A DNA stretch of 64,000 bases from Candidatus Kaiserbacteria bacterium (GTDB lineage: Bacteria > Patescibacteriota > Minisyncoccia > Phycocordibacterales > UBA2100): the NCBI GenBank assembly GCA_963767115.1, contig CAVYCR010000003.1, positions 27,559 through 91,558 on the forward strand. Direction: 5' to 3'. How positions within the stretch are numbered: the first letter of the stretch is position 1; the number at the start of each line of letters is the position of its first letter. Positions 6,970 through 58,714 of the stretch are shown here, in pieces. The notes under the pieces were generated by a model. That model saw only the letters and a list, made by a program, of their open reading frames with translations, was not told the origin of the DNA and did no database searches. A program made the translations under genes and the position numbers.

Positions 6970-6986
6970 TGATAAAATCAAAAATA

Positions 6987-7044
6987 AAATCTCAAATCTC
7001 AAAACTAAATAGAGAAACGGATTTGAGATTTGAATTTTGAGATG
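6987..7044. repeat. AT-rich heptad repeat / imperfect inverted repeat (AAATCTC units and the complement GATTTGAGATTTGA)
   Basis: Spacer between rpsM and rpsK. aaaatctcaaatctcaaaac ... ggatttgagatttgaattttgagatg. Confidence 0.7.
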
Positions 7045-7059
7045 TAAATTTGTAAACCT

Positions 7060-7494
7060 ATGGGAAAAAAACGAATCATTCGAAAATCAGGAGGAACAGT
7101 AGACGCCGGCATGAAGTCGCGCGCGCTTGCACGTGTGGCCAAAAAGAACATTACGGCAGGTACTTTGCATATTCATGCGACCTACAACAACACCAAGGTC
7201 CTGCTTGCCGACAAGGGAGGCAACACCATCGCGTGGTCTTCTTCGGGAGCATTGGGATTCTCAGGGGCTAAAAAGGGCACGCCGTTTGCAGCCGCTAAGG
7301 TCGGAGAGCTTGTAGGCGACAAGGCAAACATCATCGGTATGAAGGAGGTCGAGGTAATCATTCGCGGCGTAGGCTCGGGTCGTGAGTCGGCGCTCCGCGC
7401 TTTTGCAGGCAAGGGCATCGACATCATGCGTATCGCTGATGACACCCCGGTCCCACACAACGGTCCGCGTGCTCCCAAGCCCCGAAGAATCTAA
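7060..7494 (+). CDS. rpsK: 30S ribosomal protein S11
   Basis: 144-aa S11-like sequence (LHIHATYNNTKVLLADKGGNTIAWSSSG...). Confidence 0.92.
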   Translation: MGKKRIIRKSGGTVDAGMKSRALARVAKKNITAGTLHIHATYNNTKVLLADKGGNTIAWSSSGALGFSGAKKGTPFAAAKVGELVGDKANIIGMKEVEVIIRGVGSGRESALRAFAGKGIDIMRIADDTPVPHNGPRAPKPRRI

Positions 7495-7500
7495 AAGGTC

Positions 7501-7587
7501 AAATCTAAAATCTCAAAACTATGTTACAAACTTTTTCAAAATATATTAGCTTCTCAATTAGATTTGAGATTTAACTTTTGAGATTTA
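7501..7587. repeat. second copy of the AAATCTN heptad / inverted-repeat spacer element
   Basis: aaatcta aaatctc aaaacta ... gatttgagatttaacttttgagattt, between rpsK and rpsD. Confidence 0.7.
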
Positions 7588-7597
7588 AAATATTTTT

Positions 7598-8289: not shown

Positions 8290-9262
8290 ATGTCCGACTA
8301 TCATATCGCACTTCCTAGCAAGCCCCGTGTCGTCTCGGAAACCGAGCGCAGCGGCGTCTATGAGATCGACGGCCTCTACCCGGGATACGGCAATACCCTC
8401 GGCAACTCGCTTCGCCGCATCATCCTCTCATCGCTTCCGGGCGCTGCTGTCACGCATGTAAAGATCCCGGGCGTGCCTCACGAGTTTTCCACGATCGAGG
8501 GCGTCAAAGAGGACGTCGTCACGATCCTTCTCAACATTCGCAAGATCCGCTTCCAGCTCCTCACCGACGAGCCGCAGACCATCACGCTCTCGGTGAAGGG
8601 CCCGAAGGAGGTCACTGCTGCCGACCTTAAGCTTCCCGGCCAAGTCGAAGTACTCAACCCTGAGCAGGTGATTGCCGAAGTAACCGGCAAGGTCAACTTC
8701 GAACTCGAGCTTCGCGCCGAGCGTGGCTTGGGTTACATCCCCAAGGAAGAGCACCAGAAGGAGCGTGTCGATATCGGCACCATCGCGATCGATGCGATCT
8801 TCTGCCCGATCCGCCGCGCCAACTACGAAGTCGAAAACATGCGCGTCGGCGACCGCACCAACTTCAATCGCCTGCGCATCATGATCGAGACTGACGGCAC
8901 GCTTCGCGCCGCGCGAAGCGCTTGAAAAGTCCATCGAGACGATGATCCACCAGCTCAAGGCCGTCGTCGGTTTCAAGGAAGAGGAAGTCGAGGAATCTAG
9001 CGCACAGGTCACTGATACGCGCATGACGCGCGAGGAGAAGGCCGCTCCGATGGACGCTGAAATGCTCAAGACCCGCATCACCGAGCTACAGCTCCCGCAG
9101 CGCGTCGAGCAGGCTCTCGACAATGCGTCGATCCGCACGGTCGGCGGTTTGGTCCGCAAGCGCGAGGACGATCTCCTTGCGATCGAAGGCCTCGGCCAGA
9201 AGGGTTTGCAGGATATCAAGCGCTCACTCTCCAACCTCGGTCTTACGCTGCGCTCGCAATAA
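8290..9262 (+). CDS. rpoA: DNA-directed RNA polymerase alpha subunit, interrupted by a +1 frameshift near 8905-8908
   Basis: Track ORF 8290..8925 is the alpha NTD (ends ...IETDGTLRAARSA*). The +1 frame, open from 8885, reads PREALEKSIETMIHQLKAV... and continues as the alpha CTD to 9262. Confidence 0.85.
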
Positions 9263-12180: not shown

Positions 12181-14040
12181 ATGGCAAAAATCATAGGCAT
12201 TGATTTGGGCACGACCAATTCTGCGATAGCAGTCGTCAAAGGCGGCGAGCCGGAAATCTTGGAAAACGCGGAGGGTGCGCGCACGACGCCTTCGATCGTC
12301 GCTACATCGAAGACTGGCGAGCGCCTTGTAGGCCTTCTTGCGAAGCGCCAGGCCGTCACCAATCCAAAGAACACAGTTTACCAGATCAAGCGCTTCATCG
12401 GCCACAACTTCGACGAGCCGCTCGTGCAGAAAGACCGCGGAGCCGTGCCTTTTGAGACACAAAAATCCGCTAACGGAGGCATCGAGGTCAAAATGGACGA
12501 CAAGTGGTATCGCCCCGAAGAGATTTCAGCGATGATCCTCCAGAAGCTCAAGGCAGATGCAGAGGCACGCCTCGGTGAGACCATCACGGAGGCAGTCATC
12601 ACGGTGCCCGCTTACTTCAATGATTCGCAACGCCAAGCCACCAAGGATGCCGGCAAGATCGCAGGCCTCGACGTGAAGCGCATCATCAACGAGCCGACCG
12701 CGGCTGCGCTTGCCTACGGCTTCAACAAGAAGAAGAACGAGAAAATCGTCGTCTTCGACTTCGGCGGCGGCACCTTCGATATCTCCGTGCTCGAAGTGGG
12801 CGACGATGTGATCGAGGTACGTTCGACCGACGGCGACGCGCACCTCGGCGGCAAGGACATCGACCAGAAGATCATGGATTGGATCGCAGAGGAGTTCAAG
12901 AAAGAAAGCGGCATCGACGTGCGCAATGACCCGCTCGGACGCCAGCGTCTCGACGAAGCCGCGGAGAAGGCCAAGATCGAACTCTCAACTGCGCTCGAAA
13001 GCGAGATCAACATCCCATTCATTACCTCGGACAGTTCCGGCCCGCGTCACTTGCTCGTGAAGCTTACACGCGGCAAGCTTGAAGAACTCACCCAGGAATT
13101 CGTCGATCGCGCGATGACCATCACCAAACGTGCGATGGAAGCATCACCCTTCAAGGTCAGTGATATCAACGAAGTCGTGCTTGTCGGAGGCCAGACTCGC
13201 ATGCCCGCTCTGCAGAAAGCAGTCGAGCAATTCTTCTCCCGCAAGCCCAACATGAGCGTCAACCCCGACGAGGTTGTGGCGCTTGGCGCCGCTATACAAG
13301 GCGGTATCTTGCAGGGTGATGTGAAAGACGTGCTCCTACTCGATGTGATCCCGCTTTCACTCGGTATCGAGACCATGGGCGGCGTCGCGACCAAGCTCAT
13401 CGAGCGCAACACGACCATCCCGACCTCGCGCTCGCAAACGTTCTCTACCGCTTCTGACAACCAACCCTCGGTCGAGATCCACGTCGTGCAAGGCGAACGC
13501 CCGATGGCTCCCGACAACAAATCACTTGGCCGTTTCAACCTCGACGGTATTCCGCCGGCGCCGCGCGGTATGCCCCAGGTCGAGGTTACCTTCGATATCG
13601 ACGCCAACGGCATACTTACCGTGAAGGCAAAAGACAAGACGACCAACAAAGAGCAGTCGATACGCATCGAGGGCTCCTCAGGCCTCTCAGATGCCGACAT
13701 CCAGAAAATGCGTGAAGACGCCGAGAAAAACGCAGACATCGACAAGCAAAAACACGAGCTTGTGGAAGCACAAAACGCAGCCGATCAAATTGTGTATGCG
13801 GCGGAGAAGGCACTCAAGGATCATGGCGACAAGGTCGGCGATGATATCAAGAAGGGCGTGCAGGAAAAGATCGATGCGCTCAAGACTGCGCGCAACGGCA
13901 GCGATCTTGCGGTTATCAAGTCAGCTTCTGAGGCACTTTCTACAGAGATGAGCAAAATCGGCGAGACCATGTCTAAGAACCAAGAATCGCCACAAGCATC
14001 GACCGACCAGTCTCCGCCTTCTGACAATAACCAACAATAA
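12181..14040 (+). CDS. dnaK: molecular chaperone DnaK (Hsp70)
   Basis: 619 aa with canonical Hsp70 motifs ([30 protein letters not shown]). Confidence 0.97.
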
Positions 14041-14053
14041 GCACAAGACCATC

Positions 14054-14131
14054 GACCTCGCCCAAAGAAATATTCTTTTGCGACCCGAACGATAGGCGGA
14101 AGCGCAAAAGAATATTTCTTTGGGCGAGGTC
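14054..14131. repeat. foldback element, type 1: perfect 29-bp arms and a 20-nt loop
   Basis: Arms 14054-14082 and 14103-14131 are exact reverse complements. The loop is acccgaacgataggcggaag. Confidence 0.85.
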
Positions 14132-14165
14132 TGGTATATTTCTATCTCAGGCACATAATGTAACT

Positions 14166-15245
14166 ATGAAAGATTATTACGAAATCCTCGGCGTGCCGAA
14201 AGGTGCCAGCGAAGACGACATCAAGAAAGCATTCCGCAAGCTCGCGCAGAAGCATCACCCCGACAAGAAGGGAGGCGACGAAGCGAAGTTCAAGGAGGCG
14301 AGCGAGGCATATGCCGTGCTTTCTGACAAAAAGAAGCGCGCTGAGTATGACGCCTACGGCAAGACATTTGCTGGCCATTCGACAGGCTCAGGCCAAGGTG
14401 GTCCATTTGGCGGGTTCGATTTCTCAAATTTTACCAACGGGGGCGGACAAGGACAACAATTCGAATTCGACCTCGGAGATATATTTGGTGATATCTTCGG
14501 CGGAGGCAGCGCGCAACAACAAGCGCGAGGACGTGACGTCTCGATCGATATCGAGCTCTCGTTTCGCGAAAGCGTCTTTGGCACGGAGCGACGCGTCCTT
14601 GTATCTAAAATAGGTCTCTGTGATACCTGCAATGGCTCTGGTGCCAAGCCAGGCACGAAGATGACCCAATGCAAGACCTGCAACGGCAAAGGCGAGATCC
14701 GTGAGACACGCAATACATTCTTCGGTCAATTCACGTCGGCGCGTGTGTGCTCCACTTGTAATGGTCGCGGTGAAGTTCCCGAGACACCGTGTCCGACATG
14801 TCAGGGCAGAGGTGTAATGAAAAAGCAAGAAGAGATCCATATCCAAGTGCCATCAGGCGTCCAAGACGGCGAGATGATCCGCATGACAGGCCGTGGTGAA
14901 GTAGTACAAGCCGGCGGGGCAGGGGATCTCTATGTGAAGTTGCATGTCAAAAAAGATCCTGCATTTTCGCGCGAAGGAAATAACTTGCTGACGAATCTTT
15001 CGATCAAGCTTACCGACGCGCTTCTCGGAGGACAGTACACTATCCGGTCGCTCGACGGCGATGAGAAGATCAACGTCTCGCCCGGGGTCGCGCATGGCGA
15101 GATCATTCGCGTGCGCGGCAAAGGTGTGCCCACCGCCAGAAGCGGCCGCGGAGATCTTCTCGTGCGTATCGACATTGAATTCCCCAAGAAGCTTTCGCGC
15201 AGCGCGCGCGACCTCATCGAGAAGCTGCGTAGTGAAGGATTGTAG
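14166..15245 (+). CDS. dnaJ: molecular chaperone DnaJ (Hsp40)
   Basis: J-domain with HPD (KHHPDKK), a G/F-rich region, and four CxxCxGxG zinc-finger repeats. Confidence 0.95.
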
Positions 15246-15254
15246 CAGGTGACA

Positions 15255-15362
15255 TATCCCAGCTGCGGCTGTTTTGCCGTCTACGCAGGCGCGGCGGCGC
15301 CGAGTCCGAGCGCTGGGCGAGCACGCCCAGACAGCGACGGCAAAACAGCCGCAGCTGGGATA
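15255..15362. repeat. foldback element, type 2: perfect 27-bp arms and a 54-nt core with two internal hairpins
   Basis: Arms 15255-15281 and 15336-15362 are exact reverse complements. The core is shared with 55975..56094. Confidence 0.85.
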
Positions 15363-15387
15363 CGCCAAGGAAAACGTAGGTTATACT

Positions 15388-16584: not shown

Positions 16585-16629
16585 GGCGCGAACGAATACA
16601 AATCGTTCGCGCCTTTATGTTTTTTATTT
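16585..16629 (+). terminator. Rho-independent terminator
   Basis: 11-bp stem ggcgcgaacga/tcgttcgcgcc, 7-nt loop, then tttatgttttttattt. Confidence 0.8.
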
Positions 16630-19038: not shown

Positions 19039-19040
19039 AT

Positions 19041-19075
19041 AGTGATGTCCGACATCACTAATATCGTTATTTTTA
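19041..19075. terminator. hairpin between convergent genes (probable bidirectional terminator)
   Basis: agtgatg-tccga-catcact followed by a T-rich run. Lies between the histidine kinase stop and the thrS stop. Confidence 0.5.
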
Positions 19076-27250: not shown

Positions 27251-27365
27251 GCGTATCCTCTCGTTACATATTTTTGAAGCCGAGGACCGAACCCGCAGAC
27301 CGCGAAGCGGGCGTGAGGGCGCTTGCGTCCCGCAGGATTCAAAAATATGTAACGAGAGGATACGC
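27251..27365. repeat. foldback element: perfect 28-bp arms and a 59-nt GC-rich core
   Basis: Arms 27251-27278 and 27338-27365 are exact reverse complements, between ftsW and murG. Confidence 0.8.
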
Positions 27366-31897: not shown

Positions 31898-32089
31898 AAT
31901 CAATTTGCCCCGTATAATGAGGGAATATGGCAGAGGAAGTCAAAAGAAGCAAGCTAGACCATCTGATGTGTATTGAAAGAGGCTGCCGCGTGCGACTGCC
32001 TTTCCAGTACGAATCTGTACTGTGATCTTCGAAAGGAGGTATAAGTCAAGTATAAGTAGACGAGACGCGCTTAACGAAGGAGATGAGCC

Positions 32090-32329
32090 ATGGAGCAAAT
32101 CTGTCCTTTGAGTGCAGTAGGAGAATCTGAAGGAGTCTCACCTCACTGCAGGTCGTGTTTTCGCTCTATCGTCTGCCCGTTTGGACACCACGATCTAGGA
32201 GGAGAATCAGATGTGACTATGCATGCGGTTGGTGCAATGCAACAGCAGCCTACTATGCTCGCGTATCGCACTCCACGACAATTCCACCGTCGTGAACTTC
32301 CTGATCCTCTTACCTCAGATTGGAAGTGA
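32090..32329 (+). CDS. small Cys/His-rich hypothetical protein (79 aa)
   Basis: AAGGAG 8 nt upstream of the ATG. HCRSCFRSIVCPFGHH cluster. Terminator hairpin 44 nt after the stop. No recognisable homology. Confidence 0.35.
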   Translation: MEQICPLSAVGESEGVSPHCRSCFRSIVCPFGHHDLGGESDVTMHAVGAMQQQPTMLAYRTPRQFHRRELPDPLTSDWK

Positions 32330-32372
32330 TCCTATCTATACGCCGCCACTAGAGCGGGTCATTCACCTTAAA

Positions 32373-32400
32373 GCTTCCGGTTCTGCCGGAAGTCTTTTTG
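32373..32400 (+). terminator. Rho-independent terminator
   Basis: cttccgg-ttctg-ccggaag followed by tctttttg. Confidence 0.7.
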
Positions 32401-32426
32401 TGCATAAAGTCCATAAAGGAAGGTCT

Positions 32427-32473
32427 AAAAACACAAACCCCCAGCCTGAACAAAAGGTTCAAATGGCTGGGGG
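32427..32473 (-). terminator. Rho-independent terminator (minus strand)
   Basis: Minus strand reads cccccagcc-N18-ggctggggg then tttgtgttttt. The loop itself can pair (tgaac/gttca). Confidence 0.7.
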
Positions 32474-32955
32474 CGGGTGTATGAAGGCGGTTCGATACAC
32501 CACAGGAACAAGGGACCCGACCTCGCCCTTCTTGGCGGAAATAGTGAACGACGAGTGGTCTCCCTAGTCCGCTTACAATCGTATAACGAAAGTCCTTTCG
32601 CGCAAAGGGGATAAAATATGAGGTATGTGCTATCCTGCTGACGGCAGCCAGAAAGGAAGTCAAAATGGCCGGTAAATGGGAACACTTGAGGCCCGAATTT
32701 GAGCCGGAAATGAGTCTATGGGACAAATTGACTGAATGGTGGTACCTGCGCATCTATTATCCATTCATGGATTGGTGGAGAGGTCGTGGCGGCGGAGGCG
32801 GTCCACCACGCATGGCATGATCTACGAAAAGCCGTTCGGTCAATCCGGGCGGTTTTACTTATGTAAAAAGGGAAGCCCAGTTGAGCACAATTCTTTAGGT
32901 ATATATGTCGCAAAAGATATAGGTCGAGAATACCAACGTTTTATCAAAGCCTTAT

Positions 32956-32985
32956 AAAAGAAAAATCCCACGCACTTGGCATGGG
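32956..32985 (-). terminator. Rho-independent terminator after the DUF433-like gene
   Basis: Minus strand reads cccaug-ccaagug-cguggg then auuuuucuuuu, directly after the stop at 32996. Confidence 0.6.
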
Positions 32986-32995
32986 ACGAGGTCGC

Positions 32996-33214
32996 TCACT
33001 GTTGAATGAGGAAGTCTATCTTGTCGAGTTCCGCGACAAGACGCTTGTCCATCTCGATCAGAGAAAGAGGTTCGCCTGTGCCGAGCCAGACTCTGATGGC
33101 GGCATTCTCGATTTGGGCATGCGAGAGTCGTGGATAAAGACGTTGCGCCCCATCAACCATCATTGCACCGAGGATTCCTAAAGTTCGCGAACCACCCAAT
33201 GAAGGCTCACTCAT
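32996..33214 (-). CDS. DUF433-like small protein (antitoxin-like HTH); no partner gene found
   Basis: 72 aa. ...YPRLSHAQIENAAIRVW... resembles the DUF433 C-terminal motif. Confidence 0.45.
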   Translation of the reverse strand: MSEPSLGGSRTLGILGAMMVDGAQRLYPRLSHAQIENAAIRVWLGTGEPLSLIEMDKRLVAELDKIDFLIQQ

Positions 33215-33424
33215 AGTCGTCTCCTTACTATAGAGGAATTACTTAATAGATTATATATTAAATACCTAATCTGTCAATAAATTACTAAAATTCGCAAAAG
33301 GATATAGAGCGAGAGTGATTTAGGTTAACCAAAATATTAGCAATAAAATTGCAGTAATTTTAGTGTATTAACAGCATGGGTAAATTCATGCGCAATTAAG
33401 ACATCTATATGCTATAGTCCTTGT

Positions 33425-33610
33425 ATGAATTGGTGGAAAAGACTCGTAAATATTGGGCCAAACAACAATCTGGAAGATACAAATCCTGTAGAAAAAGAGG
33501 CTAATTCGTTGTTGCTTTCTGACTCTGATAGAAAGGAGATGGTTAGAAAAGCAGCGGAAGATTTTGCTGTTCGTTTTGAGAGTGTCATGAAAGACCTTGC
33601 AAAGACCTAG
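33425..33610 (+). CDS. putative antitoxin of the Doc pair
   Basis: 61-aa ORF ending 2 nt before the Doc ATG. No similarity to Phd/YefM recognised by eye. Confidence 0.45.
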   Translation: MNWWKRLVNIGPNNNLEDTNPVEKEANSLLLSDSDRKEMVRKAAEDFAVRFESVMKDLAKT

Positions 33611-33612
33611 TC

Positions 33613-34050
33613 ATGCCGTTTATATATCCTGATGATGATGACTTTAGGATATTTATCGGTGTAATTAAGAGTGATCAGTACCCGATTAGCAAGTACATTC
33701 CTGCTATAGATAACAATTGGTACAAAACGATCTGTGATTGTGTAGATTACGTACGCAATACAGCTCATTATGAGCAAAATGCAGAGCTTCAAGATTGTGC
33801 AGCGCGAATGTTGTACAAGGTTGCAAAAAGACACGAATTAGGTGACGGCAATAAACGAAGCGCAATCATAGCGGTATACCTATTCGTTATGTTAAACGGA
33901 TACTACTGTGGTGACCCTGCCGCATTAAAACGAGAGGCTATTAGAGCCGCTCGAAGCAAAGGCAGAACAAACGAAGAAATGATCCGGAAAAGAATTGCGA
34001 GAGTAATAGCTGCAAATATGTACCCTCACGGTGCTAGATTCCAAAAGTAG
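33613..34050 (+). CDS. doc: Doc-family toxin (Fic fold)
   Basis: HELGDGNKRSAIIAVYLF matches the Doc signature Hx(F/L)x(D/N)(A/G)NKR. The gene is AT-rich relative to the window. Confidence 0.75.
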   Translation: MPFIYPDDDDFRIFIGVIKSDQYPISKYIPAIDNNWYKTICDCVDYVRNTAHYEQNAELQDCAARMLYKVAKRHELGDGNKRSAIIAVYLFVMLNGYYCGDPAALKREAIRAARSKGRTNEEMIRKRIARVIAANMYPHGARFQK

Positions 34051-34528
34051 GCGGTGACGTTCTTTGATATCTAAATTTTGAGCAACTGATGAAAAGGCGA
34101 CTAACAACTCGGTACGCCGTAGAACTGGCCTTGGGGTTGGTCAGGGGACTTTTGAGGTTCTATCACGCACACCATGGACATCTATGCCCGTCGGCTAAAC
34201 TAGCGAGCAGGATGGTGCAAGGTTTGGGAAAAGCCAGAGCTGCTGTGCCAACGACTTGATTGCCTTATTTGCTCTAGGTATACGTCGCAAAAGATATATT
34301 GTGCGACGTATACGGTAAATGAACTCGGACATACCAGACCACTGCCCTGTCAAGTTATCCACAGGTCCTTTTCGGGAGCACGACCTTAAGGAAACCGCCT
34401 TCTCGTTCACTGTTCATGCTCAAGAAAATTCTTGATAATTATTTGCGGGGAGTGTGCCCGGGAAATTTAAAAGATATAATAGGGTGGGGTCGCAGGCAAA
34501 ACATACCGACTCCCCTGTCCCCTGCTTT

Positions 34529-35696: not shown

Positions 35697-35772
35697 CGAG
35701 AACGGCTGGGGGAATCTTTTTGCGCTTCCGCCTGTCGTTCGGGTCGCAAAAAGATTCCCCCAGCCGTTCTCG
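35697..35772. repeat. foldback element, type 1 (second copy): perfect 28-bp arms and a 20-nt loop
   Basis: Arms 35697-35724 and 35745-35772. The loop cttccgcctgtcgttcgggt is the reverse complement (19/20) of the loop at 14083-14102. Confidence 0.85.
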
Positions 35773-36486: not shown

Positions 36487-36610
36487 GGCAAGCCCGCCTC
36501 GCGGGATTTTGTTTTTTTGGGTCGTTCTTTTTCTGCTGAAAAAGAACTCTGTTTCGCGCCGCCGCGCTGCAAAGACCCCAAAAAACAAAATCCCGCGAGG
36601 CGGGCTTGCC
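36487..36610. terminator. mirror-image twin terminators forming a 37-bp-arm foldback
   Basis: Arm 36487-36523 (gcccgcctcgcggg + attttgttttttt) and its inverted copy 36574-36610 (1 mismatch) lie between convergent rpmA and rplI. The 50-nt centre has its own 9-bp hairpin. Confidence 0.75.
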
Positions 36611-55161: not shown

Positions 55162-55612
55162 TTAGGCGGATTTCTCTCGCAAGATCTTTTCGGCTCCGAG
55201 CATTGCGGCGCGCGCGATCTCCTTCTGGCTGCTGAGAAGCGCCTGACGCTGTGCTTCATCGGCACGCGCTGATGCATCCTCGAAGCATGGCCTGCGCCTT
55301 CGCTTCGGCGGCGCGGACGATTTCCATACCTTTATCGTCGGCACGCTGCCGTGCGGAGAGCGAAAGCGCTTCGGCTTCGCGCGCTGCAGCGCCGACGATC
55401 CCCTCGCCTTCAACTTTCGCCGCTTGCAGGTTGCGCCCCGCCGCCTCGGCTTGGCGCATGCCTTCAGCGATCTTTTCGCGGCGCTCGTCGATCATTGAGG
55501 TGATCGGTTTGTAGAGAAAATACGAGAGCGCGGTGAGCAGCACGCCGAAATTGATCGCCTGAATAATCAGGAGACGCCAATCGATGCCGAATGCTGCGAA
55601 GAGTTGAGACAT
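55162..55612 (-). CDS. atpF: Fo ATP synthase b subunit, interrupted by a +1 frameshift near 55281-55285
   Basis: The N-terminal TM plus coiled coil in track ORF 55256..55612 ends ...AQAMLRGCISACR*. The +1 frame continues EDASARADEAQRQALLSSQKEIARAAMLGAEKILREKSA* and stops 2 nt before the atpH ATG. Confidence 0.8.
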
Positions 55613-55615
55613 GGT

Positions 55616-55685
55616 TAGCTTCTAGCTTCTAGCTTCTAGCTTCTGGGGAATTTCTAATCCCTAGCGGCTAGCCACTAGAAGCTAG
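55616..55685. repeat. 4 perfect TAGCTTC heptads plus a downstream complementary CTAGAAGCTAG
   Basis: 55616-55643 is (tagcttc)x4. 55675-55685 can pair with it. Lies in the spacer between atpE and atpF. Confidence 0.8.
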
Positions 55686-55687
55686 TC

Positions 55688-55933
<246 letters not shown>

Positions 55934-55974
55934 CTAATTGGTAATTTATGACCTACTTTAGCACAAAACGCGGC

Positions 55975-56094
55975 GGCGCGCACTGGCGAGGTAGGTATTT
56001 TGCCGGCTACGCAGGCCCGACGGGGCCGAGTCCGAGCGCTGGGCTAGCAAGCCCAGATAGCGACGGCAAAATACCTACCTCGCCAGTGCGCGCC
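55975..56094. repeat. foldback element, type 2 (second copy): 31-bp arms with the conserved core
   Basis: Arms 55975-56005 and 56064-56094 are exact reverse complements. The core aligns with 15271-15345 at 67/74, with two compensatory pair changes. Confidence 0.85.
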
Positions 56095-56102
56095 TAACAA
56101 CC

Positions 56103-56872
56103 TTAATGCGCCGCGTGAGGATCCGTGATGGCGAGCTTGATAAAGAAAAGCGTGAGGAGCGCGAAGACCGCGGCTTGGACGAAACCGACGAATATTTCAA
56201 AGGCCATGAGGGGCGCCGGCACGATGTACGGCGCGAAATAGGTCGCAACCGCGATAAGGACTTCGCCCGCAAAAATGTTGCCGAAGAGACGAAAAGAGAA
56301 TGAGACGAAGCGCGAAAGCTCGGAGACAAATTCGATGATGCCGATCGATGAAGTTGAGCAAGCGGTTGCCGAGTCCCTCTCCGCGGAAGGTGAAGAATTT
56401 GCCCGCGTAGCGTCCAGAAGCCTACGGCGATGATGCCGAAGACTTCTATAGAGATCACCGAGATGATCGCAAGCGTGAGCGTCACATTGAGGTCGGTGTT
56501 GACGCTGCGCAGAAGCGGCGTGAAGGTACCGTCAGCAGCATAGAAGCCGACTGAGCCGATGCCCGGCGTGAATTCGATCAGGTTGGACGTCGCGATGAAG
56601 AGGAAGATCGTGATGAGAAGCGGGAAAGCGCGTCGCGACCATTTTTCGTCCTCGAGCGTCTCCTTGATGAAGTCCTGCATGTAGATCACGAGCGATTCGA
56701 GGAGTGCTTGGAAGCGGCCCGGCACGTACGAGAGCCTGCGTCGCACCACGATCGCTGCTATGATGAGGATAGTGATCGCGACCCAGCTCGTGAGCAGGGT
56801 GTTGGTGATAGGAATCCCCCACAATGTGCCTATCTGCTCGGGCGCGAGCATGACTGAAATTCCGCTTTGCAT
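56103..56872 (-). CDS. atpB: Fo ATP synthase a subunit, interrupted by two +1 frameshifts (near 56417-56420 and 56350-56353)
   Basis: The N-terminal frame is good to ...IEVFGIIAVGF. The next frame reads GRYAGKFFTFRGEGLGNRLLNF. The third frame reads IGIIEFVSELSRFVSFSFRLFGNIFAGEVL...DPHAAH*, stopping at 56103. The Ser/Arg-rich tail of the track ORF (to 56075) is out of frame. Confidence 0.8.
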
Positions 56873-56893
56873 AATGGAACGATTCTAACACAA

Positions 56894-56931
56894 AGCACAA
56901 AAAACCGCCCTTACGAGCGGTTTTTTGTGCT
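56894..56931. terminator. bidirectional terminator-like hairpin (15-bp perfect stem with A-run/T-run flanks)
   Basis: agcacaaaaaaccgc-ccttacga-gcggttttttgtgct, between the fasciclin gene and atpB. Confidence 0.7.
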
Positions 56932-56957
56932 TGTCCACTTATCTACTTAGACCTAGT

Positions 56958-58465: not shown

Positions 58466-58537
58466 GGCCCTATCGTCTAACGGTTAGGACGCCGGCTTCT
58501 CAAGCCGTTAATCGGGGTTCGATTCCCCGTAGGGTCA
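58466..58537 (+). tRNA. tRNA-Glu (anticodon CUC); CCA not encoded
   Basis: Manual cloverleaf. Acceptor GGCCCTA/TAGGGTC (one G-U pair), D-arm GTCTAACGGTTAGGAC, anticodon loop TTCTCAA, T-arm CGGGG-TTCGATT-CCCCG, discriminator A. Confidence 0.85.
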
Positions 58538-58585
58538 CAAAAATAACGAGACCGATGCATGTCATCGGGCGAATCTATTTTTGTA

Positions 58586-58714
58586 GGCCCTACGGGGAAT
58601 CGAAAGACGGAGGCGAGGTCCCCTGCAAGCTTGCAGGGCGCCCAGTCAGGGTCGTGGAATTTTTGGAGCGACGGCGACAAAAATATCCCTGACCGATCCC
58701 CGTAGGGTCACAAA
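58586..58714. repeat. structured ~130-bp segment bounded by an inverted and a direct copy of the tRNA-Glu 3' end
   Basis: 58586-58604 ggccctacggggaatcgaa is inverted relative to the tRNA T-arm/acceptor. 58694-58714 cgatccccgtagggtcacaaa is direct. Perfect 18-bp palindrome ccctgcaagcttgcaggg at 58621-58638. Confidence 0.75.

Follow-up and report, generated by a model that had tools for sequence, protein, structure and literature searches.

The intergenic DNA between atpB and atpE in a 64-kb window of a Candidatus Kaiserbacteria genome (the window being the whole stretch of DNA analysed, 64,000 nt) contains a 120-nt foldback, at positions 55975-56094, in which a repeated 74-bp centre is enclosed by outer arms peculiar to this locus. 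The reading that we prefer, and in which we place about even confidence, is that a 74-bp non-autonomous palindromic element sits at the tip of a rapidly evolving hairpin at the gene end, with stems that are kept perfect, probably by template switching. The inner layer would be a core with copies in three or more intergenic sites of the Kaiserbacteria genome, able to fold as a three-way junction on either strand. The outer layer, a perfect 23-bp locus-specific stem, would be the local version of a hairpin or palindrome that follows stop codons.

The foldback, copy 2 of what we call the type-2 family, has arms at 55975-56005 and 56064-56094 that are 31 nt long, 100% complementary and 58 nt apart, in agreement with the 31-bp exact arms reported in the initial annotation; if one mismatch is tolerated the stem extends to 33 bp. 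The RNA fold energies of the two strands are -95.3 and -96.3 kcal/mol (z -9.4 and -9.3), that of the DNA is -60.1 kcal/mol (z -12.7), and on either strand the predicted shape is a single long stem with two small hairpins on top. None of 200 shuffled sequences folded as well, and the window as a whole contains 30 perfect inverted repeats with arms of at least 10 nt, compared with 3-14 in Markov simulations; the foldback is therefore not explicable by chance. Its outermost sequence is GGCGCGC...GCGCGCC. The left outer arm, GGCGCGCACTGGCGAGGTAGGTA (23 nt, 55975-55997), is peculiar to this locus and bears no relation to the copy 1 arms; even with 5 mismatches allowed it matches nothing else in the window, and viral contigs contain no exact match to it. 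The right outer arm (56072-56094) is the exact reverse complement of the left. Between the two lies the 74-bp core (55998-56071, plus strand), which runs from TTTTGCCG to CGGCAAAA and folds as the three-way junction. The inner 5' strand of its closing helix P1, TTTTGCCG at 55998-56005 (plus strand), pairs with 56064-56071 and is kept in both type-2 copies. Hairpin P2 (56014-56027, plus strand) reads GGCCC-GACG-GGGCC and differs from GGCGC-GGCG-GCGCC in copy 1 by one compensatory double change, and hairpin P3 (56039-56056, plus strand), CTGGGCT-AGCA-AGCCCAG, likewise differs from copy 1 by one double change. Pairing is continuous from the outer arm into the core.

Copy 1 occupies 15250-15367 (plus strand) and begins 4 nt past the dnaJ stop codon. 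Its core, 15272-15345, is identical to that of copy 2 at 67 of 74 positions (90.5%) on the same strand, and similarity drops to random level exactly at the TTTT/AAAA boundary. The terminal inverted repeats TTTTGCCG and CGGCAAAA are the same in both copies, and the outer 23-nt arms beyond them are mutually unrelated. The 20-mer GCCGAGTCCGAGCGCTGGGC occurs exactly twice in the window, against 0.01 occurrences expected. Because identity ends so abruptly outside TTTTGCCG...CGGCAAAA, the repeated unit is the 74-bp core. The earlier statement that the two copies enclose the same core thus holds for this centre, and the alignment bears out that they share plus-strand orientation; it fails for the outer 23 nt, which are locus-specific, so that 31-nt arms are not a trait of the family.

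The foldback had also been described as a two-copy element. It is indeed repeated, but a third, diverged member, previously read as something else, lies between the convergent genes rpmA and rplI at 36487-36610 (minus strand; core at about 36514-36583). Read on the minus strand, its core aligns with the type-2 core. Its outer arms each include CCCGC-ctc-GCGGG followed by A and a T-run, which makes two identical intrinsic terminators placed face to face, and the right arm shares 1 nt with the rplI stop codon. The three-way junction is common to all three members: helix P1 closes it, and the hairpins P2 and P3 end in the loops GRCG and AGCA, respectively. Across the members, 9 of its 23 pairs differ on both sides and yet still pair, with no single-sided change and no G-U pair; in the three-member consensus 97% of cells are paired, against 33-50% when the partners are slid, and 0 of 500 shuffles reached the observed covariation values. 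In P3 the AGCA loop is constant but the stem is wholly different, type 2 having CTGGGCK/MGCCCAG and the third member TTCTTTTTC/GAAAAAGAA. A covariance model built from the three sequences (R1) scores them at 102, 98.7 and 78 bits, copy 2 scoring 98.7 (E 2e-26) and the third member 78, and the next-best match in the window scores 19.9. The conservation of unpaired junctions and loops (GRCG, AGCA, GCAG and GAG) suggests sequence-specific recognition by some partner.

Homologues of AtpA, AtpD and DnaJ identify the host as Candidatus Kaiserbacteria (Patescibacteria/CPR), the nearest homologues among 5.8 billion proteins being only 83-85% identical. The atp genes are on the minus strand, where the true atpB stop codon, the TAA after ...DPHAAH, lies at 56103-56105 and the atpE start codon (ATG) at 55913-55915. 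In the atp sense, copy 2 begins 8 nt past the former and finishes 59 nt ahead of the latter. A longer atpB open reading frame that extends into the foldback arm was rejected as a frameshift artefact. Two single-A insertions interrupt atpB, within 56337-56352 and 56407-56419, and deleting both restores full-length AtpB; atpF has one extra G within 55271-55285, on the opposite side of copy 2. None of these falls in a long homopolymer. The atpB sites are close to copy 2, as the initial annotation had remarked, but at about 250 and 318 nt they are slightly nearer than its 300-350 bp, and the atpF site is about 700 nt away. A connection between foldback and frameshifts was considered and dropped, the single-base insertions lying on both sides at these distances with no mechanistic link found. 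The three frameshifts fall within 1.2 kb, while long genes nearby are intact.

A 9-nt sequence 11 nt downstream of the foldback, TGCTAAAGT (55955-55963, minus strand), is by eye a possible extended -10 box of atpE, and it matches in position TGCTACTAT and TGCTATTAT in two relatives (L014 and L016, respectively), 38-42 nt before the atpE ATG. A consensus promoter scan that required a -35 box detected no promoter near copy 2. Rho-independent terminators consist of a G+C-rich stem with a U-tract directly after it (0-2 nt). The T-run following copy 2 in the atp sense, TTTTGTG, begins 6 nt after the stem and is not adjacent to it. A terminator scan returned a weak call on a small alternative hairpin at 55981-55968, and found 2 terminators where 1.0 was expected from shuffles; a genuine-looking terminator, AAAAAACCGC..GCGGTTTTTT, is present elsewhere in the window at 56893-56932. 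The spacers of these genes hold other features as well. In L014 (3585-3707) and L016 (2578-2814) the atpB-atpE spacer contains a small antisense open reading frame (40 and 78 aa, hydrophobic) that the window lacks, and in the atpE-atpF spacer of the window (55616-55685) four tandem CTAGAAG units stand opposite inverted CTAGCTTCTAG, making a further intergenic hairpin in the operon.

Relatives lack the type-2 foldbacks at the corresponding sites. Copy 1 is absent from two genomes with a DnaJ identity of 83-84% (L101 and L102) at an alignable orthologous site: L101 reads TAG|GGAAAACGTAGGCTATAAT, where the window reads TAG, cagg, the 118-nt foldback, a single a and then GGAAAACGTAGGTTATACT, and L102 is also without the foldback. 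The empty site in L101 indicates that the whole of copy 1, arms included, is extra DNA. This empty site carries no pre-existing palindrome and neither arm of copy 1, and for the latter reason an insertion that duplicated its target flank in inverted form was rejected for copy 1. Copy 2 is absent from the atpB-atpE spacers of all four relatives recovered, which range from 66 to 421 nt (187 nt in the window) and cannot be aligned base by base; since, in addition, the closest relatives have only 85% AtpA identity, the comparison with an empty site covers copy 1 alone.

Within the sequence sets searched, the core has been found in this genome only. R1 had no match in 1.1 Mb of other fetched DNA, including the atp loci of five relatives, or in the dnaJ regions of L101 and L102. 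At the gathering threshold, tRNA-Glu alone passed an Rfam search of the whole window, and a permissive search of 55850-56200 gave four sub-threshold matches, the top three to miRNA-hairpin models and the best at 28.5 bits, where 90 was the threshold. Scanned as an exact pattern, the core gave 13 matches in species-representative genomes, all of 20-23 nt, at chance level and in unrelated high-GC taxa, and none in JGI metagenomes and IMG/VR; a scan of IMG/VR for the core of a second foldback family, type 1, was likewise empty. Comparison of the type-2 core with phage and plasmid collections by blastn gave at most 31-nt chance matches in mycobacteriophages, and a metagenome scan by way of AtpA recovered only distant loci of 54-73% identity. 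No transposase was seen among the open reading frames inspected in the 64 kb, which are part of a 237-kb contig, nor was an autonomous parent element seen there, and a Pfam scan of ten unassigned open reading frames of the window detected no transposase, HUH nuclease or recombinase. Foldbacks elsewhere in the window are reproduced independently: a contig from the Logan assemblies (L100, run ERR11630394) is 100% identical to window positions 13396-15328 (1.9 kb) and includes a type-1 foldback, the left arm of copy 1 and 57 nt of the copy 1 core. Such foldbacks are therefore not an artefact of one assembly, and the perfect match over 1.9 kb, away from the atp region, indicates that the window assembly is not generally error-prone. 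The contig ends inside the copy 1 core, which suggests that foldbacks fragment de Bruijn assemblies of CPR genomes.

The same architecture recurs with other cores. Six inverted repeats in the window have arms of 27-31 nt, and each of these six long foldbacks has a stop codon no more than 16 nt from its start, in one case with an overlap of 1 nt. The type-1 pair (14054-14131 and 35697-35772), both sense to local transcription, has the same sharp core boundary: a common 34-36-bp centre, TTTT(T)GCG-N20-CGCAAAA(A), with one loop difference, is flanked by perfectly paired outer arms of 20-22 nt that are unrelated to each other. The first of the pair stands in the dnaK-dnaJ spacer, where the relative L102 has only a 7-bp hairpin. 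A single-copy foldback at 27251-27365, 14 nt past a stop codon and upstream of a MurG-like gene, has arms of 28-31 nt, the boundary TTTTTGAA...TTCAAAAA and a core unrelated to types 1 and 2. Outside the window, the atpD-atpC spacer of the closest relative, L016 (AtpA 85%), holds a foldback of 109 nt whose perfect arms measure 27 nt (L016 8084-8192); the corresponding gap is 0-13 nt in five other genomes, the window included. The layout of this foldback is the same, an outer arm followed by TTTTTGATAC...GTATCAAAAA, and its core is again unrelated. No relative above 93% AtpD identity was available as a filled or empty partner for this foldback. A TTTT(T)G...C(A)AAAA boundary is thus common to four unrelated core families (type 1; type 2 with the 36487-36610 member; 27251-27365; and L016 8084-8192), and the outer arms of the core-bearing foldbacks are perfect, unrelated to one another and 17-23 nt long.

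Palindromes without a core are also found at gene ends, in the window at 16585-16613, 19040-19060 and 56893-56932, and most of them have arms of 10-16 nt as against the 17-23 nt of the core-bearing foldbacks. After the atpB stop codon in particular, three of the four relatives whose spacer was read have a palindrome with arms of 11-18 nt that is unrelated to copy 2: TTGTGCATACC-a-GGTATGCACAA in L014, AAGCCCCGGAC-catatt-GTCCGGGGCTT in L016 and CCGCACTAATTCCTCAAC-g-GGTGAGGAATTGATGCGG in L019. At L019 8577-8613 (atpB) and 8955-9079 (atpE), the left arm consists of the last codons and the stop, and the right arm is an imperfect inverted copy, which at the atpE stop lies 87 nt downstream. In the window, the last 17 nt of the tRNA-Glu (CTC) gene (region 58466-58711) recur inverted at 58588-58604, 53 nt downstream, and the 3' end recurs once more in direct orientation at 58697-58711, 98 nt further on; these repeats resemble the outcome of successive local inverted-copy events, or else what is left of an integration site. 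The inverted copies of native gene ends at tRNA-Glu and at atpB and atpE of L019 indicate that local inverted copying is active in these genomes.

The stems of the foldbacks are strictly symmetrical. Stems under selection only as RNA usually contain some G-U pairs. In the six long stems of the window the number of G-T positions is zero, and this, together with the absence of G-U intermediates among the covarying pairs, points to a copying process that acts on both strands at the level of DNA. Template switching can create and maintain perfect stems and produce multibase compensatory changes in one event (PMC8794818), and it homogenises and lengthens repeat arms (PMC13100816); in a census of perfect inverted-repeat density, Candidatus Kaiserbacteria ranks second-highest among all phyla (PMC13155455). 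Hairpins attributed to template switching (PMC8794818, PMC13100816) resemble copy 2 in having perfect Watson-Crick stems and no G-U intermediates, and they are inverted copies of adjacent native sequence, as at tRNA-Glu and in L019. At copy 2 itself the arms are perfect and paired changes occur without one-sided intermediates; arms drawn from adjacent sequence are seen at tRNA-Glu and L019, and those of copy 1 are missing from the relative's flank. Template switching accounts for the stems, but not for the presence of one 74-bp core at three distant loci.

For this second feature the closest parallels are small repetitive elements. REP, BIME and REPIN sequences of Proteobacteria, which are mobilised by the Y1 HUH transposase RAYT (TnpA-REP), are likewise short, intergenic, non-autonomous palindromes that follow stop codons, often within operons, and REP stem-loops in RNA can protect the upstream mRNA. 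In REPs, however, which occur at high copy number, the conserved part is the stem, an imperfect palindrome of 20-40 nt with a GTAG or CGTC tag at its foot, and the loop varies, whereas the type-2 elements conserve the centre and have an outer stem unique to each locus; they have no GTAG or CGTC tag, their stems differ wholly between copies, no RAYT gene was seen in the window, and a copy number of 3 in 64 kb is low for REP. Miniature inverted-repeat elements (MITEs) such as Correia/NEMIS, ERIC/IRU, RUP and BOX are also small non-coding intergenic repeats with terminal inverted repeats, present in either orientation and co-transcribed with neighbouring genes, like the type-2 foldbacks. The type-2 core has conserved terminal inverted repeats (TTTTGCCG and CGGCAAAA) and, at copy 1, is missing from the orthologous sites of L101 and L102. 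Target-site duplications were not seen: in no copy is the 74-bp core, or the foldback as a whole, flanked by a direct repeat, apart from an ambiguous AGG at copy 1. The core departs from MITEs in that the 23 bp outside the terminal repeat are inverted rather than direct and in that its interior is a covarying junction rather than a transposase remnant. We know of no parent insertion sequence for the type-2 core.

A target preference of the kind that we envisage does have precedent. IS1272, of the IS1182 family, inserts into inverted-repeat structures that follow genes and produces no target-site duplication (PMC5678879), and REP palindromes are the targets of several insertion sequences (PMC1525189); the apparent terminal repeats of such elements vary by copy as target and element repeats merge. 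These, however, are full-length insertion sequences with a transposase, whereas the type-2 element is 74 bp and its insertion is deduced, and IS1272 is described as replacing the target inverted repeat, whereas the putative target stem is here retained. Integron attC sites are also folded, with structure conserved over sequence and in some cases a branched centre. Their outer R and L boxes (RYYYAAC/GTTRRRY) are conserved and their centre is variable, the opposite of type 2, and no R/L boxes, integrase or cassette array was seen in the window. The type-2 foldback, a lineage-specific repeat, is thus best filed as an element of the REP/MITE kind, shaped by template switching, with the unusual layout of a conserved covarying centre and locus-specific perfect arms.

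The anatomy, the family, its covariation, the absence from relatives, the empty site of copy 1 and the location with respect to the genes are read directly; how the core moves, what template switching contributes and whether there is an effect at the RNA level are what we infer from them. In the most likely history, the hairpin at the end of atpB received or captured the core at its apex, perhaps by structure-targeted insertion. Replication template switching between the arms would then hold the stems in Watson-Crick pairing, with seemingly compensatory changes arising in a single step. Simple insertion into a loop does not predict long outer arms with pairing continuous into the core, and a later step that perfects or extends the stem is therefore needed. 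The relatives' empty dnaJ site, which has no palindrome, does not bear out an order in which the hairpin came first, and the lack of a transposase or autonomous parent in the 64 kb and the conserved unpaired junctions and loops also count against the preferred reading. Co-transcription with atpB would yield a hairpin of about -95 kcal/mol, closed by a 33-bp stem, between the atpB stop codon and the probable atpE promoter or leader. Such a hairpin could plausibly act as a block to 3' exonucleases, an RNase III site or a weak terminator of atpB transcripts. Overall, copy 2 is probably a small selfish or structural element and, as far as the ATP synthase is concerned, it probably has either no effect or a modest one on the ends of atpB/atpE transcripts.

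The main competing explanation, which we regard as fairly unlikely, reverses the order of events: a bare 74-bp core arrived first, and its 8-bp inverted ends provoked an intramolecular template switch that copied about 23 nt of flank in inverted form. The native inverted copies at tRNA-Glu (17 nt, 53 nt away) and L019 atpE (87 nt) have a similar spacing, and the narrow 17-23-nt range of the outer arms and the continuity of pairing into the core fit this order at least as well; a perfect stem could, moreover, arise in one template-switch event (PMC8794818). It is weakened by the empty site of copy 1, which carries neither arm, so that the source arm too would have to be newly gained, and by the microhomology that a return switch requires. 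An improbable reading is that the family is a functional structured RNA, either a cis-acting 3'-UTR element or a small RNA, whose three-way junction binds a protein or ligand and whose stem serves as a scaffold. Covariation is strong, loops and junctions are conserved even though the P3 stems share no sequence, and the three members score 78-102 bits over a background of at most 20 bits. Yet G-U pairs and single-sided changes are both absent, Rfam gives no match, the consensus scan finds no sigma-70-type promoter nearby, and absence from the relatives' orthologous sites implies that neither atp nor dnaJ has the element as a conserved regulator. Orientation also bears on this reading. As the initial annotation stated, gene ends and strands place the core sense to dnaJ at copy 1 and antisense to the host operon at copy 2, and its view that this is hard to reconcile with a purely mRNA-level function needs to be divided. 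A sense-specific role of the core is hard to hold at both loci, but a role of the stem only is unaffected, since a symmetric stem would exert the same RNA effect whatever the orientation of the core. The opposite sense at the two loci, the absence from relatives and the DNA-symmetric stems together make a sense-specific RNA function of the core unlikely.

Quite improbable, too, is that copy 2 is an intrinsic terminator or attenuator of atpB and the repeat incidental. Its position, 8 nt past the atpB stop codon and just upstream of the probable atpE -10 box, would suit such a role, as would TTTTGTG 6 nt beyond the stem, the weak call at 55981-55968 and the two clear terminator hairpins in the arms of the related 36487-36610 member. 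The T-run, however, does not adjoin the long stem, the scan performs no better than on shuffles, the genuine terminators of the window look different (AAAAAACCGC..GCGGTTTTTT, 56893-56932), and the repeated core would be left unexplained. We give very little credence to the idea of an RNA-guided system with shRNA-like units, in which a conserved scaffold would carry variable arms of 20-23 nt acquired as guide- or spacer-like sequences. The uniform arm length (17-23 nt), the unique arm sequences and the conserved scaffold are what such a system would present, but arms have no match elsewhere in the window at up to 5 mismatches, exact scans of four arms against viral contigs gave one chance-level 19-mer only, some comparable arms are plainly native gene ends (tRNA-Glu, L019), and no effector gene occurs among the window's open reading frames inspected. 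Equally remote is the possibility that assembly or sequencing produced the foldback artificially, for instance as a chimera. Three single-base insertions in the nearby atp genes might be taken as a sign of error; against this, the core is found at three sites with compensatory differences, every copy sits exactly in an intergenic slot, and the independent Logan assembly contains the neighbouring foldbacks without a single base difference.

If a 74-bp element has indeed been nested in a gene-end hairpin maintained by template switching, copy 2 would be a clean example of how CPR gene-end hairpins are built and remodelled, with inverted copying making the stems and small repeats colonising their tips. 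It would also help to account for the high rank of Kaiserbacteria in the census of perfect inverted repeats. A caution would follow, namely that covariation without G-U intermediates can originate at the DNA level and is not proof of a functional RNA. The foldbacks occupy sites that are annotated as terminators or promoters and so matter for operon prediction in metagenome-assembled genomes of CPR bacteria, and they break short-read assemblies, as the Logan contig that terminates within one illustrates. A broader proposal, which we think unlikely, is that Kaiserbacteria, and perhaps other CPR lineages with a very high density of perfect repeats, harbour very small mobile elements of a class not described before, namely structured cores of 34-84 bp, bounded by TTTTG...CAAAA, that either home specifically to the apices of gene-end palindromes or form a fresh perfect stem of 20-23 bp each time they insert. 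The three-way junction with its GRCG and AGCA loops might be the recognition site of a single-strand DNA enzyme.

Elsewhere in the window, AT-rich hairpins made of AAATCTCAAA-type units stand on either side of an rpsK-like gene, at 6974-7051 and 7494-7591, and represent a further repeat family. At about 32000-34400 there is a patch of short open reading frames with a third-position GC of 0.37-0.39, compared with about 0.6 elsewhere, which includes a weak Fic/DOC match at 33613-34050; this patch may be a small foreign island at the place where gene orientation switches.
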